From Rotaria socialis (Eukaryota): a DNA stretch of 20,000 nt. Position 1 is the first letter of the stretch, and every line of letters starts with the position of its first letter. The DNA is taken from the NCBI GenBank assembly GCA_905331295.1, contig CAJNYD010000400.1:54025-74024 (forward strand), in the 5' to 3' direction. The notes below the pieces were generated by a model, which made no database searches, was not told where the DNA came from, and saw nothing but the letters and a program-made list of their open reading frames with translations. Of this stretch, positions 3,683-20,000 are shown piece by piece. Made by a program: the position numbers and the translations under genes.

Positions 3683-3831
3683 ANATACTTACAAGCAGTT
3701 CTAGTGTTTCCTTTTATGTAATAAAAAATCTATATAGGTCGGAGTGACGTAAATTCGACATATTCATGACTGGCTCGAAAAAAGTACATTCGTTTTTTTT
3801 GTCAAAAGTGAAAATAAATACTTCAATGAGA
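3683..3831 (-). repeat. Right arm of the inverted repeat pair (partner 1-150)
   Basis: Reverse-complement match to 1-150. The repeat may extend further right, but its partner would then lie outside the window. Confidence 0.9.
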
Positions 3832-8144: not shown

Positions 8145-8517
8145 TAGGAGTGTGGATGCATTGTTATCGATATCAATAACAATAACTTTTTTTGTGGTTT
8201 ATTATTGATAACAATAACATTTTTTACTATTTGTTATAAATAACAGATAAATAGCAAATAACTTTTTTTTCTGAAAAAGATCATGTCTCAGTTCGTTGTA
8301 TGTTTTAATTGTATCCACTATATGAGCTGATGCTTGAGAACCAATTTTTAGCTTCTATATTGCTACTTAGCATAGTATAATGGATAAAAACAATGAACTG
8401 AGTTTTCACAAAAAAACGTTGATGTTATTTATCTTTGATTTATAACAAATAACTATCGAAAAAAGTTAGTGTTATTGTTATTAATAACAACAAGATAACA
8501 ATAACTTTTCACCCCTA
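8145..8517. mobile_element. hAT-type MITE (373 bp) with 8-bp TSD
   Basis: GCTAAAAA(8137-8144)|TAGGAGTG ... CACCCCTA|GCTAAAAA(8518-8525), with many subterminal AATAAC/GTTATT motifs at both ends. Confidence 0.9.
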
Positions 8518-8836: not shown

Positions 8837-8866
8837 ATTTATTTTGTTTTTATTTTAATGTGTATG

Positions 8867-9005
8867 CATTTTTATGTATCCTCAGAGCTGAGGAATTTGA
8901 GTGCATTTGGTGTAACGAGAATGGGTATCCATTTTTATGTATCCTCAGAGCTGAGGAATTTGAGTGCATTTGGTGTAACGAGATGGGTATCGGAAATGGA
9001 TACCC
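8867..9005 (+). repeat. Two tandem 63-bp units plus a short inverted partial unit (left array)
   Basis: Unit CATTTTTATGTATCCTCAGAGCTGAGGAATTTGAGTGCATTTGGTGTAACGAGAATGGGTATC starts at 8867 and 8930. It is followed by AAATGGATACCC (8994-9005), the reverse complement of GGGTATCCATTT. Confidence 0.95.
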
Positions 9006-9886
9006 TATTGTAAGAATGCGTGTCTTCATAATTATAAATAAGGAAAAGTGATGCTATGTTGAAATTTATTGTATTCATGTAGTCAGCTTTATGCCAATGT
9101 TTATGGATGTGTTCAGATTTGTTTAATGAGTTTTGTAGATGGCGTGCAATTGCAGGTAAGTGTTCGTTGAACAACTTGATTTTCACCGGGTCACAATTTA
9201 TTACAACTTTGATCACAATGACTCGTTGAAGTCGTGTTGAAACTGTAGCATGCTGTGTGGTTGGTGTTATTGTGGATTGTCACATGTATGTTATGTGAAT
9301 TGTGCCTTATATTATTTTGTTTGCAGTAGGACCTGTCAGTAGGAAAATTCGTGATTCGTTCTCGAGAAGTTTTTTGAAAATGGTAGTAGTATCCTAGTTT
9401 GATTTTTGAACTAAACTTATTGAATTCGACGGAAGCGGTAAAAAGGATGTGAAGATAAGTGCACCTGTGTGGAAACACTATCAATAAAAGACATCTCTGG
9501 CTATTCACATACAAATACGCTACCGAGTTGTGTAGCAATCCACGGTGGATGACGAACAAAATATTAATCAATATAAGCCATCAACAAATATCCGAAAATA
9601 TTTTTCAAAACACAACATATTCCCATAATAGAGCATTGAGCATGAAATTATGAAGAACCTATAGTATCGTTAACTCGTTAATCGTTTAATTGCAACACAT
9701 AAACTTCAAAAGACCATATTCACTTATTTTAACACAACTATTTCACCGTTAGAAAAATTTAGTTGAAAATCTAACTTGATACATGAATGTGTTTGATAGT
9801 TAAAAGTTTTTCTGATTATATTCTTCTGCTCAGATTTATTTTAAACAGCGTCTCCATTCTCAGCATGAACGAAATTCGAATCGATA

Positions 9887-10223
9887 GTCGACATCAATCT
9901 TCTTGCTTTAATACAAGTTATCGAATCGTTTATAAATGAATTAATTCGAAATTCGAAATTATCTGCACTTTTTTTCACAGAATTCAATCTATTGAATGAT
10001 TCGTATGTGTAACTGTTTTTAATTTTAATTACGTTCATCTTTTAAGGCATATTCCGATATTTAGATTTCTGATTGTTCTGAATACATCTCAATGGGTGGT
10101 CGACATCTATCTTTATTCTTCAATAGATACTATTATATCGTCTGTCGATGAATTAAAACGAAGTTATCTGCGCCTTTTTCACAGAATTCAATCTAGTGAA
10201 TGATTCGTAGGTGTTATTGTTTT
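9887..10223 (+). repeat. Diverged direct duplication, period ~212 bp
   Basis: GTCGACATC...ATGAATTA...TTATCTGC...TTTTCACAGAATTCAATCTA(T/G)TGAATGATTCGTA(T/G)GTGT occurs at 9887-10020 and 10099-10223. Confidence 0.85.
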
Positions 10224-10995
10224 ACTAATGATTTTCATTTCTTTTGGGATATCTCAATTGTACAATGACTATTAGAAGAAATATATTTTTATGTCCATAT
10301 GGTACTTGTCAGTACATTGAAATCGATCATATTGAATTGTGTCAAATCAAACATTTCGAAATCATGTTGTGGTGTTCTGCGTTTTAGCCAAACTATTTAA
10401 GAGTTGGTCGGTTAGAATGTTTGTGTTTCAATAGCTTTTCTTTGTATTCAGATGTCGGAAAAGTAGCAATGTGTATAGGAACAAAAACTAAAACCAGGTT
10501 GATGTGAATGTTTGTCTGTGGTATGTTCGAAACTTTTTTTTAATGAATAGGACTTGTTTTTTATTGACCTGGAAAATATATGCAGTTACCTCTAGGATGT
10601 GTATATGGAAGTTTTTGTTTTTTTACAGTTTAACAGGTTAAATAAAATATAATAGAACACCTTGCTTTTAGGAAGGGAGAATGAAGAAAATGCGTTTTGG
10701 TATTTCTTTAGCTTGGAATTAGTTTGTTCACAAACGACTGTATTGATGTTTTTGAGTTCTTCGTAGGTGTAGGGGTTGGTTTGAGTAGAACACATGGCAC
10801 GTTTATGGTTGCCTATGTGAAATTTATCAACGACGAAAGTGAAGTTAGATCTAAAGTATTTGATTTAGATGCAAGAAATATATTTGTTGCTGGTTCTTAC
10901 AATGCATCTGTCCTTTGCGATTTTGTTATTTTGCCACGTTCTAATCGATTCCGTAGTGTGAGAATCAGGCCACATGCATTATCGTATATCAAGTA

Positions 10996-11474
10996 GGGGT
11001 CATTCACTTTTTTTCTCTTCACTATAACGGGGGGGGGNNNNNNNNNNNNNNNNNNNNNNNNNNNNNNNNNNNNNNNNNNNNNNNNNNNNNNNNNNNNNNN
11101 TGGGAAAGCAACCAGATACTATGTACAAAATTTATTCATAGGATTCTCTCTTTTAATGTAATTTTAATCATTTATACCTTGGAAACTTTGTGACACTTTG
11201 TTTAAAAAACAAAATGTCACTTTACACTGTAATGGCAAAAGTAAAACGTCATTTGACTTTTTGTTTTAGATTCCTATTAGAAACGCTGGTGAGGTGTTCT
11301 AGTTCCTGGTTGTTCTCTATTGAAAAGATGATAATAAAGCAGTTAGTCCTTCACAGGCAAACAGAAAGCAACTAATTCTTCAGATGCCTACAATGAGAAA
11401 AGAGATGACATATAGGGTGGGAAATGAGATTCTAAAATCTAGTAAATATGTTGACATAATAGGTGATTGTCACC
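10996..11474. mobile_element. Nested insertion with TA TSD and imperfect TIRs, spanning an assembly gap
   Basis: AAG-TA|GGGGTCATTCACTTTTTTTCTC ... GACATAATAGGTGATTGTCACC|TA-TTTCGG; the termini match at 15 of 22 positions. Removing the insert plus one TA restores minus-strand CCG AAA TAC TTG ATA TAC GAT AAT GCA TGT (PKYLIYDNAC). Confidence 0.85.
11038..11100. other. Assembly gap (N run) after a poly-G tract
   Basis: 63 Ns; the true length of the nested insertion is therefore unknown. Confidence 1.
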
Positions 11475-13552
11475 TATTTCGGTACTTTACTAGAAAATAA
11501 ATTAATGAAATTCGTTCGTATCATGCATTTCTCCGGAAAAGTTTGACTTACGCTGCTGGTGATAGATGCTCGATCGTATTTAGTAAATGATGAATTACAC
11601 GCATCGGTGATTCCGATCGGTATAATTCATCAAAATTCACGATTATTCCACAATTGTATATTGTCAATATTATACCGTACGATGTTTTTCGACTTGCATA
11701 ACGATCATTCCTAGAAGAAATTATGTAACATACATATATAAATGTCAAGTTAAATGTTACCTTGAAACGTTGCAGTCGATATTATCATAATCATTGCTGT
11801 TGTTAATATCTTCAGTTGATTGGTCATTATTTAGATGAACGTGTTTCGGACAAAAATTGGTGTTTTTCCAAAATCCAGGATTTTTTTTGTCTTGTATCAT
11901 CTCTGGACGAAACCCACATCCCCAATCTATATCACCTAATCAGAAAAATGTTAACGTTTTCAAATAGTTTAAATTTGTTTTTACCTAGTTCATTTGAATG
12001 AATAACATCAGTGAATTGACAAACAAATCGATCTGGTTTTTGAAAGCCGTCAATGACAATTGCACCTGAACAATTATCACCACAGCTGTTTCGAACAGAA
12101 TGATTTGACCAGAATAAAATAAATTGGTGTTCCCATATTGGCAACGTTTCATTAAAGTAAGTGTTCATTTGGTGTCTATCACTCATGTTTAATGGAATTT
12201 GTATTTCTTGTGTTTTTGACAAGAAAATTGTTATTAATGTGGAAGAATATATCATCCAAATATTCTCGAACAATCGACGTTCTAATAGTGGTGGATTTGT
12301 TACTTGATTAGATTGCATATTTGAACGAGATAACAATAATGAGAGCATGGTGTCGTTGTATCCCTCAGCAAAATTTTCAAAACCTGAATACTAAAAAGAT
12401 TTGATTGAAAAGATTTTTCCATTCGTATGATAGAATGGATCATAAGAAACCCAGATCTCTTTCGTTACAATTCTCAGTTTAATTATGCTATCTTTTTTCT
12501 TACCAAGTTTACTAAATCAGCAGCGTATCGTAATACTATCTCAATAGTTAGAACAGATTTTCCACCAAAATGAATATATTTTTTATTTTGTATCGAGCCT
12601 GGAACAACAAATCGCTTCGACATTTTAAGAAAACTATTTGGAAAATAGTCTATTTGACAACAGTTAGCAATGTAAATTGTTCCGTTTTCTACACGATCAA
12701 TCAAAAAAACATTGACTTTTTCTTTAAACTGAAGCTTTAATGATTTGCCACAATTTAAACAAACTGAAGTAAATGGTTTAATAGTATGTAAAGATGATAA
12801 TGTAAGAACATGATGATTATTTGAATAATTGTTAATAAGAACTTTTGCATCCACTTGTGAAAAGAGAGGAAACGCAATTTGCTTGGATTTCAACAAGTTT
12901 AAGATACATTCTATAAAACTAGGATCATATGTTTTGCCAAATACCATATCAATCATATTCGATATATCAATATATTTTGATAATATGCAATCATCAAGTT
13001 CAACATCTAGCTGATTCACAAGATTCAAGTGTTGAATTGGAATATTCCTATTCAAGGATACAATAAATATTTCATTTTCATCGGAATTGCTGTTGTAAAC
13101 ATTGGAAAACATCGGAAAAAAATAAAGCATAAATGTGATTATTCGTATCTTTGATTCAATTATGTGTATTCTTATCAATTTTCAATAAATAACCGTTTTG
13201 GTTTTAACTTCTATTTTTATTCTGCTGATCTAATAAAATGAAAGTCAATTCGAAATTCTCTTTCATTGTTGAATAATATATATATTTCAGAAAAAGACAT
13301 AAATATCAACAAACAGATAAAAGCAAAGCCGTACAATCTTAAATAAAAAGTGATCTGTTTCTATCGCAAATACACATAAGAAAAAAAAGTAAACATGAAA
13401 CTTTCGTTTCATGTGCTCCACATGAAAACGACCGAATTAATCACAACAACGTACATCTAAATTTCGTCCAACTAATTTTCATAAAATACATTTCATATGT
13501 TCAATCAAATATTGTTTCAAACGTTTTGAAAGAAAGTTCATTTCTACTGTCA

Positions 13553-15830
13553 TCATGGTAAAACGTTCTTTTTTTTCTTCAATTTTGATCGTTGTGCTTG
13601 GTATTCTTTCCCTGCATTGGTAAGGTTACGCCATCTCTTAGATTTTCTATTGGAATTTGTCAATTCTGGTTGTTCAGAATCCATTGTTTCATTACACTCC
13701 ATGGACGATGCTAAATATAACTTTGATTAATAACATGAGCTTGAAAATAAAATTGTGAACTTACACTTTTCGTCGTCGAGTTGAGTTATTTCTGTTGAAG
13801 CGCTAAATAATTTACGATGATTTGATGTTGAGGGATCAATAATTTCGTTTTCATTAACGATAATTTCGAGATTAGCATATGGCTTGGCTTTAAAAATTGA
13901 TAGACCATATGAAGTAACATATGTATTGTTTCGTGTATCAACTAAAATATGTTAAACATTTATATTGATGTATAATGTTGTACATAGATTGCTAGCTCGT
14001 TCATATTTGAACATTACTCATGCTTGAACGTTTATAGTCATTTGAGTTATAAAAAAACTTGATGTTTGAACAATATTAGATTATGGCTGATAATTTTCTC
14101 CTATTGATAAGAAAAGTCTCTTATAATAAAAATCATCAAAAGAAAATTTATTCGCTTAAGAAAAGTCTTATAATTGAGAATAAAATGATATTTTTATCGC
14201 AAACAAATCGTTCTAATTTAAGATGATGTTTCATTTATGGTGCAATATTGCTCTAGTACTTATAATAGTGATTTTTGATTGTTTCTACCACACGAGGGAA
14301 AGGATTTGTTCTAATTAGTATGAATAAACAATTTAATCTTCGAAAGAAAAGTTACATATATTTTTATAGATCAAAAAACGTATAAAACATATAATTCGAA
14401 AAAGATTAAAGTTTTGGAATCTTTATTTCCTAATATCATACTATATTGGCATCATCGAATTACTCGAAGTCCATTCGTTTTAGTAAAACGAAGATTAAGT
14501 CAATTTCTGTTTATATTCAAAAATATTTGTAAATATGATCATATGAAACTAATTTAGATTGTCTAGAATAGTCCAATATTTTTCTACAAATTTTACACAA
14601 AATTGTTTTCGTTGCCAATGTATTCTACACATATGCATTAAAGAAGATCTTCTATAATTAGTATGGTTGCCTACACCTGATAATACAGATATTTGATTAA
14701 TGTTTAACATCAAAAGCAATTCTTTTTTTATCAAACTATTTTTCTTGAAATCAGTAAGAAAATTCTATAATAGATAAAACATAGGACGAATGTTTTTCAT
14801 GATATGAAAATAATATTTCAAATACTTGAAAATTAAATGAAGAGTTACGCATCGATAAGCATATCATTTAGCTCAAAGTAAAATGAAACGAATTAATAAA
14901 TACTATACGAATGATCTATTGTATGACATAAATGATCGATGTCAATCAAATACAGCTTACCAGTTTTTAAAGTTGAATAGTAGGTATCCAAATTATATAT
15001 TCCGAATTGGGCTAATAATAATGTAAATTCAATCATATCTGCAACAGATTGTGGAACTTGCTTGAGATAAGCATCGCAGTAGCTGGATTTGTTTGCAAGC
15101 ATTTTATCTTCAATGGTTAATAAGCCATGATCAATCAAGATTTGGCATGCTTTATGAACATCAATCATGTTTGTTTTACACGTTCTATTCAATTTAGTGT
15201 TTGACAGAATAACACTTTCAACCAGTAAAATCTTTTTACACAAAAGTTTCATGCCCTCGGACACAAGTGGATTTCTTACAATGCTAATTTTATTTTCATT
15301 GTGAATCGGAACTAGAACAATATGTTAATAATGAATATGCAAATGTTTTAAAAATTACCAATTTGTTGTTTTGTTACTAAAGTAACATTTGTCGCTGTAA
15401 TGGAATTCAAAGAATTTGCTACTTGTGTGATTATATCAGACAAAATATCATGAATCACAATATCGTTTTGTATTTGATCGCTGTACAATCCTCGAGATGA
15501 GCTTGAGTATTCTAAATACAAACTAAAATTATCATAAAAAAATTGTATGTAATATCTCACGATCATCAAATTTGTTAGAAATCAAAGATTGTTGTCGTTC
15601 AGTACTTTCGATCACAACATCATTCTGCTGAATTTTGCCAATAGTATCAAGTTGATCGAAAGATAATACTGGTAAGTCATATGGATTGTAATTGATACAA
15701 TCCAGAATATCATATAAATCATCTAACAAGAATGAAGTCAAACGAATGATATAACAAATTGACTTACTTTCTTTCGCTAATAAACTATCTTTAATCATCA
15801 CGTTTGTTGTAGAACAACGATTAGTTATAT
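13553..15830 (-). CDS. Spliced coding region with a winged-helix-like repeat and a basic NLS-like tail; either the 3' half of the AAA+ gene or a separate gene
   Basis: Exons 15830-15561, 15511-15359, 15311-14961, 13941-13765 and 13710-13553, in frame with GT-AG introns (one of 1019 bp). Core: KKILLVESVILSNTKLNRTCKTNMIDVHKACQILIDHGLLTIE...AYLKQVP. Tail: RKSKRWRNLTNAGKEYQAQRSKLKKKNVLP*. The 5' end is unresolved. Confidence 0.7.
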
Positions 15831-16367
15831 CTTAACGGAGAGAAAAAAATATTACAATGCTATATTGATACATTCTGTAATTGATAGGCATGAGTAGAGA
15901 TCTATTGTTTATTCGGTCTATCAATCTTCATTAAAAATTCGAATTCTGCATTACTGGCTACTAATGATAATAAATATACAAATTGCGACAAGATAATCGT
16001 TCTCTGTAGAGCAAATATACCAGTTTCATTAGATTAAAAACCGCACGTTTACAAAGGCAATAATAATACACATAAAAATGAATTAACGATTAGGCTTTGT
16101 GTAGAGAATTGTGACGAATCAGTATTCATATGATCTAATTTTTCTGCGCAGTTTATGGTTAAATCTTTAAGCAAATTCTTTATGTTAATAAAAATAATAT
16201 ATTCATTTTAAGAACTTGATCTGTTTATAATGGCTGTGATTGAATAGATTTTTTATCAAATATTGTATTCCTGTATTCATTACGCGATAAGTTCTTAAAT
16301 CATCATAGCTGTTTTAATCGTGCAAACACTGGTTCATAATAGAGAATTTCAATACCGATGCAAAGCT

Positions 16368-18919
16368 TCATTCACCTGTATTTTACAGTCTCAATGTTCT
16401 CAAAACAAAGTCGAACTGGTTTCAACCAAAATACTTACTTGAAAAGGTTAAATCGAAATCAAACCCATTTAGTTTTTCTTTCAATAGACTAATCCATAAT
16501 CTTTGTGTTTCTAAAAGTTCTTTGCCACTTTGACACAACGTTGTACTGTTGCAATCAATGCTTTTAGTATATGTATCTAAATATTGTTTCAGTGTTATTT
16601 CGTAGTTGTAATGCAATTCATTTTGAAAACATAAGATTTGTTCATCATTGGATGGATCAGGCAATTGCTTAATCCAACTTTCAATTGCTCGTGATCCAGC
16701 TTTAATATATTTGCCTCTCTTAATGAACGATTTCTTTTCCAAATTCGATAAGACTTCCTTTACATCAATCTTATTTCTTTTATGATCTAAAAGTATAAAA
16801 ACAATGAGATATTGGTAATTGATAAACTGATCAAATTAATTACTATGAAATACACCACTATGAGTAAGATCACTAATCGAGAAGCAATTGACATGATGTT
16901 CAATTATTTTTAATTCGTTAATGGTATTATTTTTAGCTACATTTGTATCAGTGTTAAATAATTTTATTGACTGTGGTAATAAAAGTTTATCAAAAAAATA
17001 AACAGCTGCTTTGGCTGCTGACAATGTAACTTTCATCGAAGATAATGGTGATTTCAATACACTTTTTATTTGAACTTCAGGTAAGTCTTTCAAGTCAATA
17101 TGATCAGGATATAAGCCACTTTCTGTATGAATATCACTAATAATGAATAACCATTTCAAATATACATATATATACATATAATTATCCTAAGGGCATTGAA
17201 AAATAAGTTCTCTGTTTTCTACTTATGTAATTTCACAGTTACTCTGTAGGAAAAAATAGATACTACGGAAACCTTTTTTCAAAACGTTGATCTATGCATT
17301 GTAAAATGACTCCTTTTACCAGCATTATTTTTTATTCGAACACACTCCGGTAACAAAAGGAGAGTCGATAGATTTACTGCTAACATTCATAGAATAAAAA
17401 GTAGATGAATGATTTATATACATACTTATTCTTTTTTGATATTTAAAAGGCATATGAGATATTAACAAAGCAAAAATAAAATCGCAGATGAACATTTGTT
17501 TTAAGTTTCATGTTCTTCTCTATTAGTTTTATACTTACCTATTATCTTTTTGTTGATAGAAATTACGATCAACATTGGCCTTAATTTTTTCAAAAGTATG
17601 CTTTTGAATACGATGAAAATCGATTGAATCAATGTCTTGCAAAACCATTACTGTATCAAAAAGATTCTGAAAAATAACCGCAATGCGTTCGATTAAATCA
17701 GCGCTACGCCGTTGACATGCCTCTAAAAAAAAGATTTTTTTTTGATAACATAAAAATAAAATAATGACCTGCTCGTTTATTAGATGGAATAGTTGTTGAA
17801 ATTTCATCACAACTGTGATTGCTTCGCATCGCCGATAAGATTGGTTTTAGATAAGCTGATGTATCTTCATCATAAATATATATGCGGTGACCGATTTCCA
17901 TACGGGTAATAAATAGATACTCGAGTGATGGTAAGTTGTTTTTCATATCATGCTTTTCTTCAACAAAGTTCTTCTTACTAATGACCCAATATAGAAATCT
18001 TTCATATAAACCTAATAACCAATCAAAATATTTAAAAAAATACTATATTTTAAAAAGAATTTTACTTACCATTCGTCTGATGTGCATCGTAGAAATGCTC
18101 CAATAATTGTGGCCAACGATCCCCAGTAGTTGGTATTAAGACGGTTAGGCTTCGATCGTGAATATTATTGTTTTGTCTCACTGTTGATCGCTGCAACTTA
18201 TATACTCCATTGAAACCACATATTAAGTTAGGATGTATTTCTTTCGCTTTTATTGAATTTGGTTCAAAAAAAGCGAAGTCTGTCAACGGACGATCTTCAT
18301 CAGATGAGATGAATTTCTAAAGCAAAATTAAGCATTTTTCAATTCGAAAGTAACAGCAGTATAATCGTACCGACGACATTTCTAATTCGGAAATTAGTTT
18401 AGCAGTAGTTAAACTTTCCATGCATGTAGTAGAAAATTTGTTATTATTATCAATAAATTGTTCTCTATAATAACGTTCAACAAAATCAAAAGCTTCTCTA
18501 ACAGGTTTTATATAACCGGATTTATGAGATACTATGCAGAAAACAATAATATACTTATTCAATAGAAAATTAAAAACATATACCTGAATTTCCACGTAAA
18601 ATACCATACAACTTTAAATTAGTATATTCCATTTTATCTTTGTCATATAATTTTGATTCAGAAGACCTATAAAAGCAAAAACTATCTAGGATGTTTTTAG
18701 AATAAGAATTTACCAATGCATAAATGAAATTAACACGCACCAGAATAGCGTTAAATCATTTAGTTTTTTACTTCGATAGTTTTCAAAGATCTTTACCAAA
18801 TAAGGTTGATCAGGAAAAAAATCACTTAAGTTATAAGATGCTGTTAATGCCTCACAAAATTCCACGTTGAGACAATCAAGTTCATTTAATTCCTTTATCC
18901 ATTCCGTTCGTTTAGACAT
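16368..18919 (-). CDS. DUF3987/YfjI-like (MCM-related) AAA+ P-loop NTPase with a C-terminal winged-helix-like domain, ~590 aa
   Basis: Exons 18919-18714, 18666-18584, 18531-18371, 18316-18070, 18011-17769, 17722-17539, 17136-16844, 16786-16439 and (tentatively) 16375-16368 join in frame. Motifs in order: Walker A-like LYGILRGNSVSHKS, Walker B KFISSDE, Arg-finger-like NGLYERFLYW, lid helices ADLIERIAVIFQ and VTLSAAKAAVYFF. The exon structure is solid; the family call is by eye. Confidence 0.7.
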
Positions 18920-19880
18920 AATAGAAATCAATAAAATTACAAGTAGCTAAAAGTAAATCTATAAAGAGTAAATGATGAGGGATACTAGACAAATCGATTC
19001 CAAAGAACATTTCATTGAAGATATCTAAGCACAATTTATTAAATAAGTCCTTTTCTTCAATAAATAATTATTCAACAGGTGCTTTATGTTGTAGATATAT
19101 TCTCGCATGTGGAAAACAAAGCATATAAGCAACAGGTACTATACACAGATATTGAAAATCTACTAGTTACATTAGAATCTTAAATAATATTATCAATACA
19201 TGTAACAGGTAAAATAAAACATACATACTACTGGTAACATGGTTAACAAGAATCAACAGTAATTTAGAAGTCATAAGATACAGAAAATCACATAAAATAT
19301 CTATCACAATAGGAACGCAACATTCTAAATACTACCATAGAATATCCGATGTTGTATTTTACAACCAAATGATCTATTTAGATTAAAATTTGGTATATAT
19401 ACACCGACTAATAGAATATACGGACAACAAGGGTCCATTATAAAACAAAGCAAGCAAAAAAATGAATATATTGCCATTACAGACGGAGAGTGGTGACAAT
19501 GCTATCTAACAAACACCTCAGATAATGGCCCATAAGTACTAGTCCGTAACCGTAAAAGCCCTTAAAAAAATTTATTAGAAGAAAAAACTTTTAAGAATAT
19601 ATTTGAATCATATGTGACGGAATAAAATTCTACAGACTACAAATTTCCGCAAAAGCCTTCAAACTGCTAAAATCAAATACCACTCGACAGATGGCAGTTT
19701 ACATTACATTGCATTCGTAAAGCAATTTGATCTTCGATGCATTTCATATAACTAATCCTATCAATACAAAAATTTCAAAAAAATTCCAATGAATTAGCCA
19801 GGTTCACAATCCACTTCGAAAAATCCATTCAATACCAACTCGACAAAAATTCTCCTCAATTCCCCAATATTGAAATAAAA

Positions 19881-20000
19881 CCAAATGCACTCAAATTCCT
19901 CAGCTCTGAGGATATACAAAAATGGATACCCATTCTCGTTACACCAAATGCACTCAAATTCCTCAGCTCTGGGGATATATAAAAATGGATACCCATTCTC
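19881..20000 (-). repeat. 63-bp tandem array (right), inverted relative to 8867-8991; runs off the window
   Basis: CCAAATGCACTCAAATTCCTCAGCTCTGAGGATATACAAAAATGGATACCCATTCTCGTTACA starts at 19881, and a partial second unit starts at 19944. It is the reverse complement of the left unit with only a few substitutions. Confidence 0.95.

Follow-up and report, generated by a model that had tools for sequence, protein, structure and literature searches.

How does an ATPase gene of phage-helicase affinity come to lie, divided by introns, beside a transposase in an animal genome, and what could it do there? Transposons of the cut-and-paste type are not known, in eukaryotes, to depend on an ATP-driven motor that they themselves encode. 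The locus lies in a 20,000-nt stretch of AT-rich eukaryotic DNA (GC about 0.3), referred to here as the window, in which the original prediction had recognized a spliced DUF3987/YfjI-like AAA+ gene inside a eukaryotic transposon.

Gene structure and splicing

With one exon as query, a 942-aa Rotaria protein was retrieved whose cluster contains P0004 (Rotaria socialis). The spliced alignment of P0004 (942 aa) to the window has no mismatches, 13 GT-AG introns and a single terminal stop, and it defines a DUF3987/SF6-like AAA+ gene of 14 exons on the minus strand at 13553..18919 (18919-18714, 18666-18584, 18531-18371, 18316-18070, 18011-17769, 17722-17539, 17136-16844, 16786-16439, 15830-15768, 15722-15561, 15511-15359, 15311-14961, 13941-13765 and 13710-13553). 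The introns are 45-1019 nt long, with a GC content of 0.13-0.30. Agreement with P0004, a database gene model, is not independent proof of the introns; their support comes from contigs of run X1 and from homologous loci. The X1 contigs (95-99% alike), from a run that is classed by guess as probable RNA, skip exactly introns 6, 9 and 12, so that transcript support for the predicted junctions extends to these three; the X1 joints listed include none for the other 10 introns, the Walker A intron and intron 8 among them.

In L003 and L005, the two metagenome loci that cover introns 1-5, with about 55-75% protein identity, all five interrupt the corresponding residue in an unchanged phase (2/2), and introns 4-5 keep position and phase in L001 and L004 too. 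The homologous loci show pS 0.75-0.79 (saturated), pN 0.14-0.26 and no stops. Because introns 1-5 are kept despite saturated synonymous sites, and pN is low without any stop, neither the intron positions nor the coding frame are due to chance. To judge from these substitution patterns, the gene is under strong purifying selection.

The junctions of the original prediction proved exact in the P0004 alignment. GILRGNS|VSHKS is joined across intron 2 (18583-18532, 52 nt, phase 1), which interrupts Walker A, MSS|KFISSDE across intron 3 and NG|LYERFL across intron 4, all on the minus strand. A spliced gene is thus real, but the range first assigned to it, 16368-18919, covers exons 1-8 only. The gene continues to 13553, and the stretch beyond that range encodes another winged-helix-like domain and a tail of basic character. 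With intron 8 left unspliced, as in one database model (P0013), the protein would have 593 aa and end at 16422; this form was set aside. The long 942-aa form is preferred because homologues and other bdelloid families extend into the second domain and because X1 contigs skip introns 9 and 12.

Family, predicted fold and active site

Direct searches gave little. Neither the exons nor the full protein had a DUF3987 or MCM match in direct Pfam and PHROG scans, and a direct Pfam scan assigned P0001/P0004 to no family and detected DUF3987 in none of 16 close members. Nothing significant came from PDB sequence searches with protein and profile queries, tblastn of the Adineta homologue P0018 against phages and plasmids and an IMG/VR scan with the family alignment had no match, and an Rfam scan found nothing. 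The known DUF3987 members N4 gp43 and Corndog gp22 likewise fall below the Pfam cut-off (24.2 and 21.5 versus 27).

Profile-profile comparison was more informative. When 84 bdelloid rows were aligned by hhalign with 8 YfjI-like, phage and bacterial DUF3987 rows, the match reached 97.1% (E 6.6e-11) and spanned 345 columns, from the N-helix through the winged helix; the 84-row profile alone succeeded. Shallow profiles stayed far from significance, at 0.5% and 0.3%, and an HMM built locally from the bdelloid family missed all 8 prokaryotic rows. A profile of 11 close relatives found 160 matches among 1.84 billion representatives; for Pfam DUF3987, in 41 of the 150 profile matches listed, 6 scored above the cut-off and 6 more below, and the distant matches checked for taxon were all bdelloid (10/10; Rotaria, Adineta, Didymodactylos). 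Atlas (language-model) features gave DUF3987 at 0.97/0.95.

The window's own protein, modelled from 11 rows, gave a poor structure (pLDDT 36.7), and the fold is taken from an AlphaFold model of P0018 (63% identical) with a deep alignment (pLDDT 85.4, pTM 0.88). Against the PDB, this homologue model matches MCM chains (Foldseek E 1.5e-4); the best VIA match is an MCM ATPase domain (Z 16.2, rmsd 4.2, 271 aligned residues), and all 50 VIA matches listed are MCM chains. Against the viral models of BFVD, the top matches are phage DUF3987 proteins and primase-helicases (E 1e-10). The profile-profile, language-model and structure searches agree, though direct Pfam and PHROG scans were blank, and they support the AAA+ fold and the DUF3987/YfjI-like, MCM-related identity that had been proposed from the letters.

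The profile and the model place a first winged-helix-like domain at aa ~441-590 (16439..16940, minus strand), and some MCM5 matches reach over it. A second, duplicated winged-helix-like domain (aa ~726-865; 13841..15279, minus strand) follows a ~135-aa linker and precedes a Lys/Arg-rich tail, which is likely a nuclear signal. The two domains match each other by hhalign (95.6%, E 1.3e-8) and by HMM (16.7 bits versus a maximum of 4.9 in 200 shuffles), and the second copy is present in distant bdelloid families too. Bdelloids, and Didymodactylos above all, have many diverged DUF3987 families (proteins P0128-P0258) whose P-loops are canonical and whose winged helix is likewise doubled.

In the profile alignment, Walker A (G94-N-S|V-S-H-K100-S101, interrupted by intron 2) lies at 18518..18593 and Walker B (F-I-S-S-D156-E157) at 18296..18313. 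R237 (17998..18000), the predicted arginine finger, aligns with the arginine of GFFAR in YfjI, and R326 (17685..17687), the predicted sensor-2 arginine, with that of ARLAALL in YfjI; all four lie on the minus strand. Residues were counted in an 84-row alignment split into 41 close and 42 distant rows, with 1 dropped; many rows are fragments or near-copies, and the rows are not independent. Close rows keep K100 in 17/18, S101 in 18/18, D156 in 21/22 and E157 in 20/22, R237 is found in 24/24 close and 30/30 distant rows and R326 in 29/30 close rows, and position 193 is basic (R/K) in 21/21 close rows. The Lys, the Ser, the Asp-Glu pair and both trans arginines are retained across 45-60% identical relatives, so that the K-S, D-E and R positions singled out at the outset are conserved, near-invariantly in close rows.

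The P-loop itself, G-N-S-V-S-H-K-S, departs from the canonical glycine-rich form in that both glycines are replaced. Close rows read G-[NDE]-S-V-[STC]-[HNY]-K-S and distant rows mostly G-P-S-G-S-G-K-[ST]; V97 is found in 16/16 close rows and H/N/Y at position 99 in 17/18, where other bdelloid DUF3987 rows have G in 14/16 and 13/18. The 8 prokaryotic DUF3987 rows deviate as well, with Arg before Lys in 7/8 and, at position 4, Ser in 3/8 and Val in 0/8, which makes the His before Lys unremarkable and the Val the odd residue. In a quick tree, the V/H form is one branch nested among bdelloid rows (SH-aLRT 99). Its nested, well-supported position indicates that the V/H P-loop has been derived and maintained, and, judging from this tree, it is a derived trait of the subfamily. 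The original prediction had called the P-loop degenerate; two glycines are indeed replaced, but the term is overstated, since phage DUF3987 proteins have non-Gly residues at both positions and the other catalytic positions are conserved. On these residues, the protein is probably an active ATPase.

In a tree of 35 rows, made by a quick method and with long branches, the bdelloid rows stand apart from the phage and bacterial rows and no donor is named. The initial idea was an old capture from a prokaryotic or viral element. Such a capture may have been direct, though the tree resolves no donor, or the immediate source may have been another eukaryotic transposon.

The transposase neighbour and the element

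The adjacent gene, 440 bp downstream and on the same (minus) strand, encodes a CxC5-(CxC6-like)-KDZ transposase (10592..13112). Its approximate exons (13112-12504, 12390-11986, 11936-11760, 11712-11551, 11489-11477, 10995-10901 and 10850-10592) are identical to R. socialis P0044, match CxC5 and KDZ weakly in the correct order and carry the motifs IVIDG, YDNAC, DKFHIGNH and CEQ. In the homologue P0036 (58% to the orthologue), KDZ scores 30.0 against a cut-off of 26.6 and CxC5 falls below its cut-off. The CxC5 and CxC6 domains are presumably linked to the Kyakuja clade. Most database models of the transposase (P0037, P0033, P0032 and relatives) end at 'TDAL', without the last exon with DKFH and CEQ, and its absence may be why Pfam rarely labels these models KDZ.

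Just before YDNAC the gene is broken by a 479-bp MITE-like insertion (10996..11474) with TA duplications at 10994-10995 and 11475-11476, short imperfect inverted ends and an internal N gap. An X2 contig skips 481 nt here, and the R. magnacalcarata orthologue reads through the site. Apart from this one insertion the exons show no decay and are 98% identical to the intact orthologue; the ATPases of R. socialis and R. magnacalcarata are 95% identical. The listed full-length R. socialis transposase models end at the insertion, and the ATPase is intact. With its transposase interrupted, the present copy is probably immobile in cis. The insertion has a very high summed depth in run X5.

Inverted arrays of a 63-bp unit, 10.9 kb apart, enclose both genes. 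The left array (8857..8991, plus strand) has 2.2 copies, and the right one (19880..20000, minus strand) is 95% identical over 118 nt and runs off the window. Given its high depth, the unit may be a repeat unrelated to the element. KDZ transposons make a 7-8 bp target-site duplication; neither true termini nor such a duplication was found here, with the right end beyond the window and the flanks not settled by the contigs. A probable internally deleted derivative lacks 9834..19695, with 9833/4 joined to 19696; in the one study that contains the joint, its short side is 29 nt in X2, and in X4 a loose end of 62 nt aligns with the window from 19697 on. The outer parts have a higher summed depth than the interior (X2 and X4 contigs), and together with the joint this fits a deleted, non-autonomous derivative.

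Between the arrays, frames within 8990-10590 are at most 129 aa long and those within 18950-19880 at most 58 aa, though a heavily spliced small gene could escape such a search. The frame scan, and Pfam on the ORFs scanned, turned up neither a primase nor a polymerase in the element, and the only adjacent gene is the transposase. An endogenous virus was considered and rejected, as only two genes and no capsid, polymerase or primase signal were found. A placement of the AAA+ gene in an ~11-kb inverted-repeat element is supported, and the adjacent CxC5-KDZ transposase, the inverted arrays and the recurrent linkage described below bear out its location inside a eukaryotic transposon.

Several other features lie in and around the element. 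Inverted repeats of 150 bp (87%; 1-148 and 3685-3831), the left arm cut by the window start, bound about 3.8 kb that is probably a second DNA transposon or a derivative, with ORF fragments that lack a useful Pfam match. An AT-rich palindromic MITE-like repeat (8161-8517) lies immediately left of the element, and the contigs of three runs break at 8517 with differing continuations. A diverged direct duplication (9879-10019 and 10091-10223, 76% over 141 nt) lies in the interval that separates the transposase stop from the left arm. The part retained by the deleted derivative holds a 129-aa frame on the minus strand (9194-9580) without Pfam match, and a 320-nt contig of X5, a probable RNA run, is about 90% identical to 9260-9579.

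The locus appears to be about single-copy per assembly and is common to R. socialis and R. magnacalcarata. Outside the window, pairing means adjacency inferred from database numbering, not read from DNA: neighbouring locus tags in A. vaga (I4U23_004310/004309), and accession numbers that nearly follow one another in R. socialis (6 pairs), R. sordida (3), R. sp. Silwood1 (at least 5) and R. magnacalcarata (6 of the window's family and 1 of another family). Several of these accession pairs sit on equal-sized contigs, and two gene models, P0030 and P0084, are fused ATPase-transposases. A partner was seen for 5/6 ATPase clusters checked; the remaining cluster, P0029, had none among the 6/14 transposase clusters looked up. 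Of those 6, 3 had an accession-level partner, 1 a shared contig size only and 2 none among the clusters seen. The partner transposases are only 44-60% identical to that of the window, which implies that the pair is old. The ATPase-KDZ pairing thus apparently exists in five bdelloid species, the window's included.

Proposed role and relation to known systems

The phage- and MCM-like predicted fold and the transposase neighbour, found here and apparently in four other species, suggest that the protein is likely the transposon's own DNA motor. The model that we favour, and consider moderately probable, is that the spliced DUF3987-family protein is an active, ring-forming ATP-driven DNA motor and a dedicated helper of the adjoining KDZ transposase. 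We infer that the protein would assemble as an oligomer on DNA, with contacts through the winged-helix pair and the pre-sensor-1 basic residue, and that ATP would be hydrolysed at the subunit interfaces through R237 and R326. The motor would then unwind or remodel a transposition intermediate (the donor ends, the strand-transfer product or the gap left behind), and host polymerases would finish or copy the unusually long element. As the primase partner of its phage relatives has been lost, the protein would not replicate the element alone.

It is tempting to go further, to a tentative picture that we hold possible but would not count on, in which eukaryotic DNA transposons have taken over an MCM-like ring motor of phage origin as a second protein devoted to transposition. 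These KDZ elements would then move by an ATP-dependent, helicase-coupled and possibly replicative route that eukaryotic cut-and-paste transposons are not known to use, and the motors would have radiated in bdelloids, one branch with a rebuilt P-loop. If true, the pair would offer a two-protein system, reconstitutable, with which to ask how elements of 10-30 kb are mobilised. The reported range of DUF3987 helicases, to date phages and bacterial elements, would widen to animal genomes, with old introns, and the naturally altered P-loop would test what an SF6 active site tolerates.

The same observations can be read differently. The ATPase may be a target-capture switch like MuB, TnsC or IstB, which would polymerise on target DNA with ATP, recruit or activate the transposase and turn over slowly, tuned by the altered P-loop. 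A single AAA+ gene that keeps its order and orientation relative to a single DDE-type transposase, without a primase, a subfamily-wide P-loop change under selection and an extra DNA-binding domain would all suit such a switch. However, the MCM/DUF3987-like fold is that of a helicase lineage, MuB, TnsC and IstB belong to other AAA+ clades, and no target preference was observed; we regard a switch as unlikely, if worth keeping in mind. The derived replacement of two P-loop glycines throughout the subfamily could also mark a catalytically weakened scaffold or DNA clamp that binds DNA and transposase with little or no ATP hydrolysis. This is very unlikely, given that relatives so diverged retain the Lys, the Ser, the Asp-Glu pair and the two trans arginines and that prokaryotic DUF3987 rows also deviate, at position 4 and before the Lys.

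An intact ATPase, a broken transposase and a shared locus also fit a stationary or domesticated gene pair, that is, an ancient fixed element whose ATPase now has a host role unconnected with transposition, DNA repair being one example. The presence of about one copy per assembly in both Rotaria species, and an unbroken ATPase, spliced in what is probably an RNA run, next to an interrupted local transposase, speak for this possibility. It is nevertheless quite unlikely: each species has several diverged families, each with its own transposase neighbour, inverted arrays stand at both ends, a probable deleted derivative occurs at higher depth, and the transposase exons are otherwise undecayed. 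KDZ elements often bear unrelated cargo, as the available portions of PMC12477816 and PMC11343200 describe, and the ATPase might be a passenger that serves neither transposition nor the host. Strong purifying selection and a linkage kept across 44-60% transposase identity make this extremely improbable. We thus retain the dedicated motor as the preferred reading.

In the literature searched, which excluded Repbase, subscription journals and supplements, no eukaryotic DUF3987 protein or KDZ-helicase pairing was described. The papers naming DUF3987 or PF13148 concern, in the text available, phages and bacteria; the terms KDZ, Zisupton and helicase are absent from a bdelloid TE survey (PMC7943196) by term count, and the accessible parts of PMC6431247 and PMC9297572 do not describe the pairing.

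In the portion of PMC4889955 available, DUF3987 proteins are placed among the SF6 helicases related to MCM; they end in a winged helix, mostly go together with a primase, and none is reported from eukaryotic viruses. One of them, AgaPH, is an oligomeric ATP-dependent 5'-3' helicase according to an excerpt of PMC11724360. Like the phage and bacterial DUF3987 (PF13148) helicases, the rotifer protein has N-terminal helices, an AAA+ core with Walker A and B and arginine-finger and sensor-2 equivalents, a C-terminal winged helix and carriage by a mobile element. Unlike them, its gene has 13 spliceosomal introns and no primase or PriCT fusion or neighbour was found; it also differs in the second winged helix, basic tail, V-S-H P-loop and eukaryotic transposase partner. 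With MCM it shares the best solved-structure match (P0018 model, Z 16.2, 271 residues) and a winged helix after the ATPase domain, but identity is about 12-14%, the N-terminal OB/zinc region is lacking (the match begins at MCM residue ~290-360), and it is not a core replication gene.

The pairing of an AAA+ ATPase gene with a DDE transposase recalls MuB, TnsC and IstB, which in contrast are prokaryotic and of other AAA+ lineages; the likeness is one of arrangement, with no homology implied. Among eukaryotic elements, AcademH is a helicase-carrying cut-and-paste transposon. KolobokH bears a RecQ helicase (PMC9587614, in the part available). Like both, the rotifer element is a transposon of the DDE type that brings along a helicase-like gene, whereas theirs is an SF2 RecQ and the rotifer gene encodes a ring-type SF6 AAA+ protein of phage affinity in a KDZ element. 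From the available text of the respective papers, Cryptococcus KDZ1 is ~11 kb long with TIRs and an 8-bp TSD (PMC11343200, PMC12810828), and further KDZ elements carry extra genes, namely the fungal TET-carrying Kyakuja (PMC12730594) and a giant Ectocarpus KDZ (PMC12477816). The rotifer element shares with KDZ transposons the CxC5 and KDZ transposase, the ~11-kb size, apparent inverted ends and an accessory gene. It differs from fungal Kyakuja, reported without TIRs in that same text, in its inverted arrays, and from all of these in that its accessory gene encodes an MCM-like ATPase, no helicase or ATPase cargo appearing in the available parts of PMC11343200, PMC12810828, PMC12730594 and PMC12477816. 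Beside the known ~11-kb KDZ elements with extra genes and the RecQ-carrying KolobokH, a DUF3987/MCM-like ATPase next to a KDZ transposase is thus, within the literature searched, a new combination.
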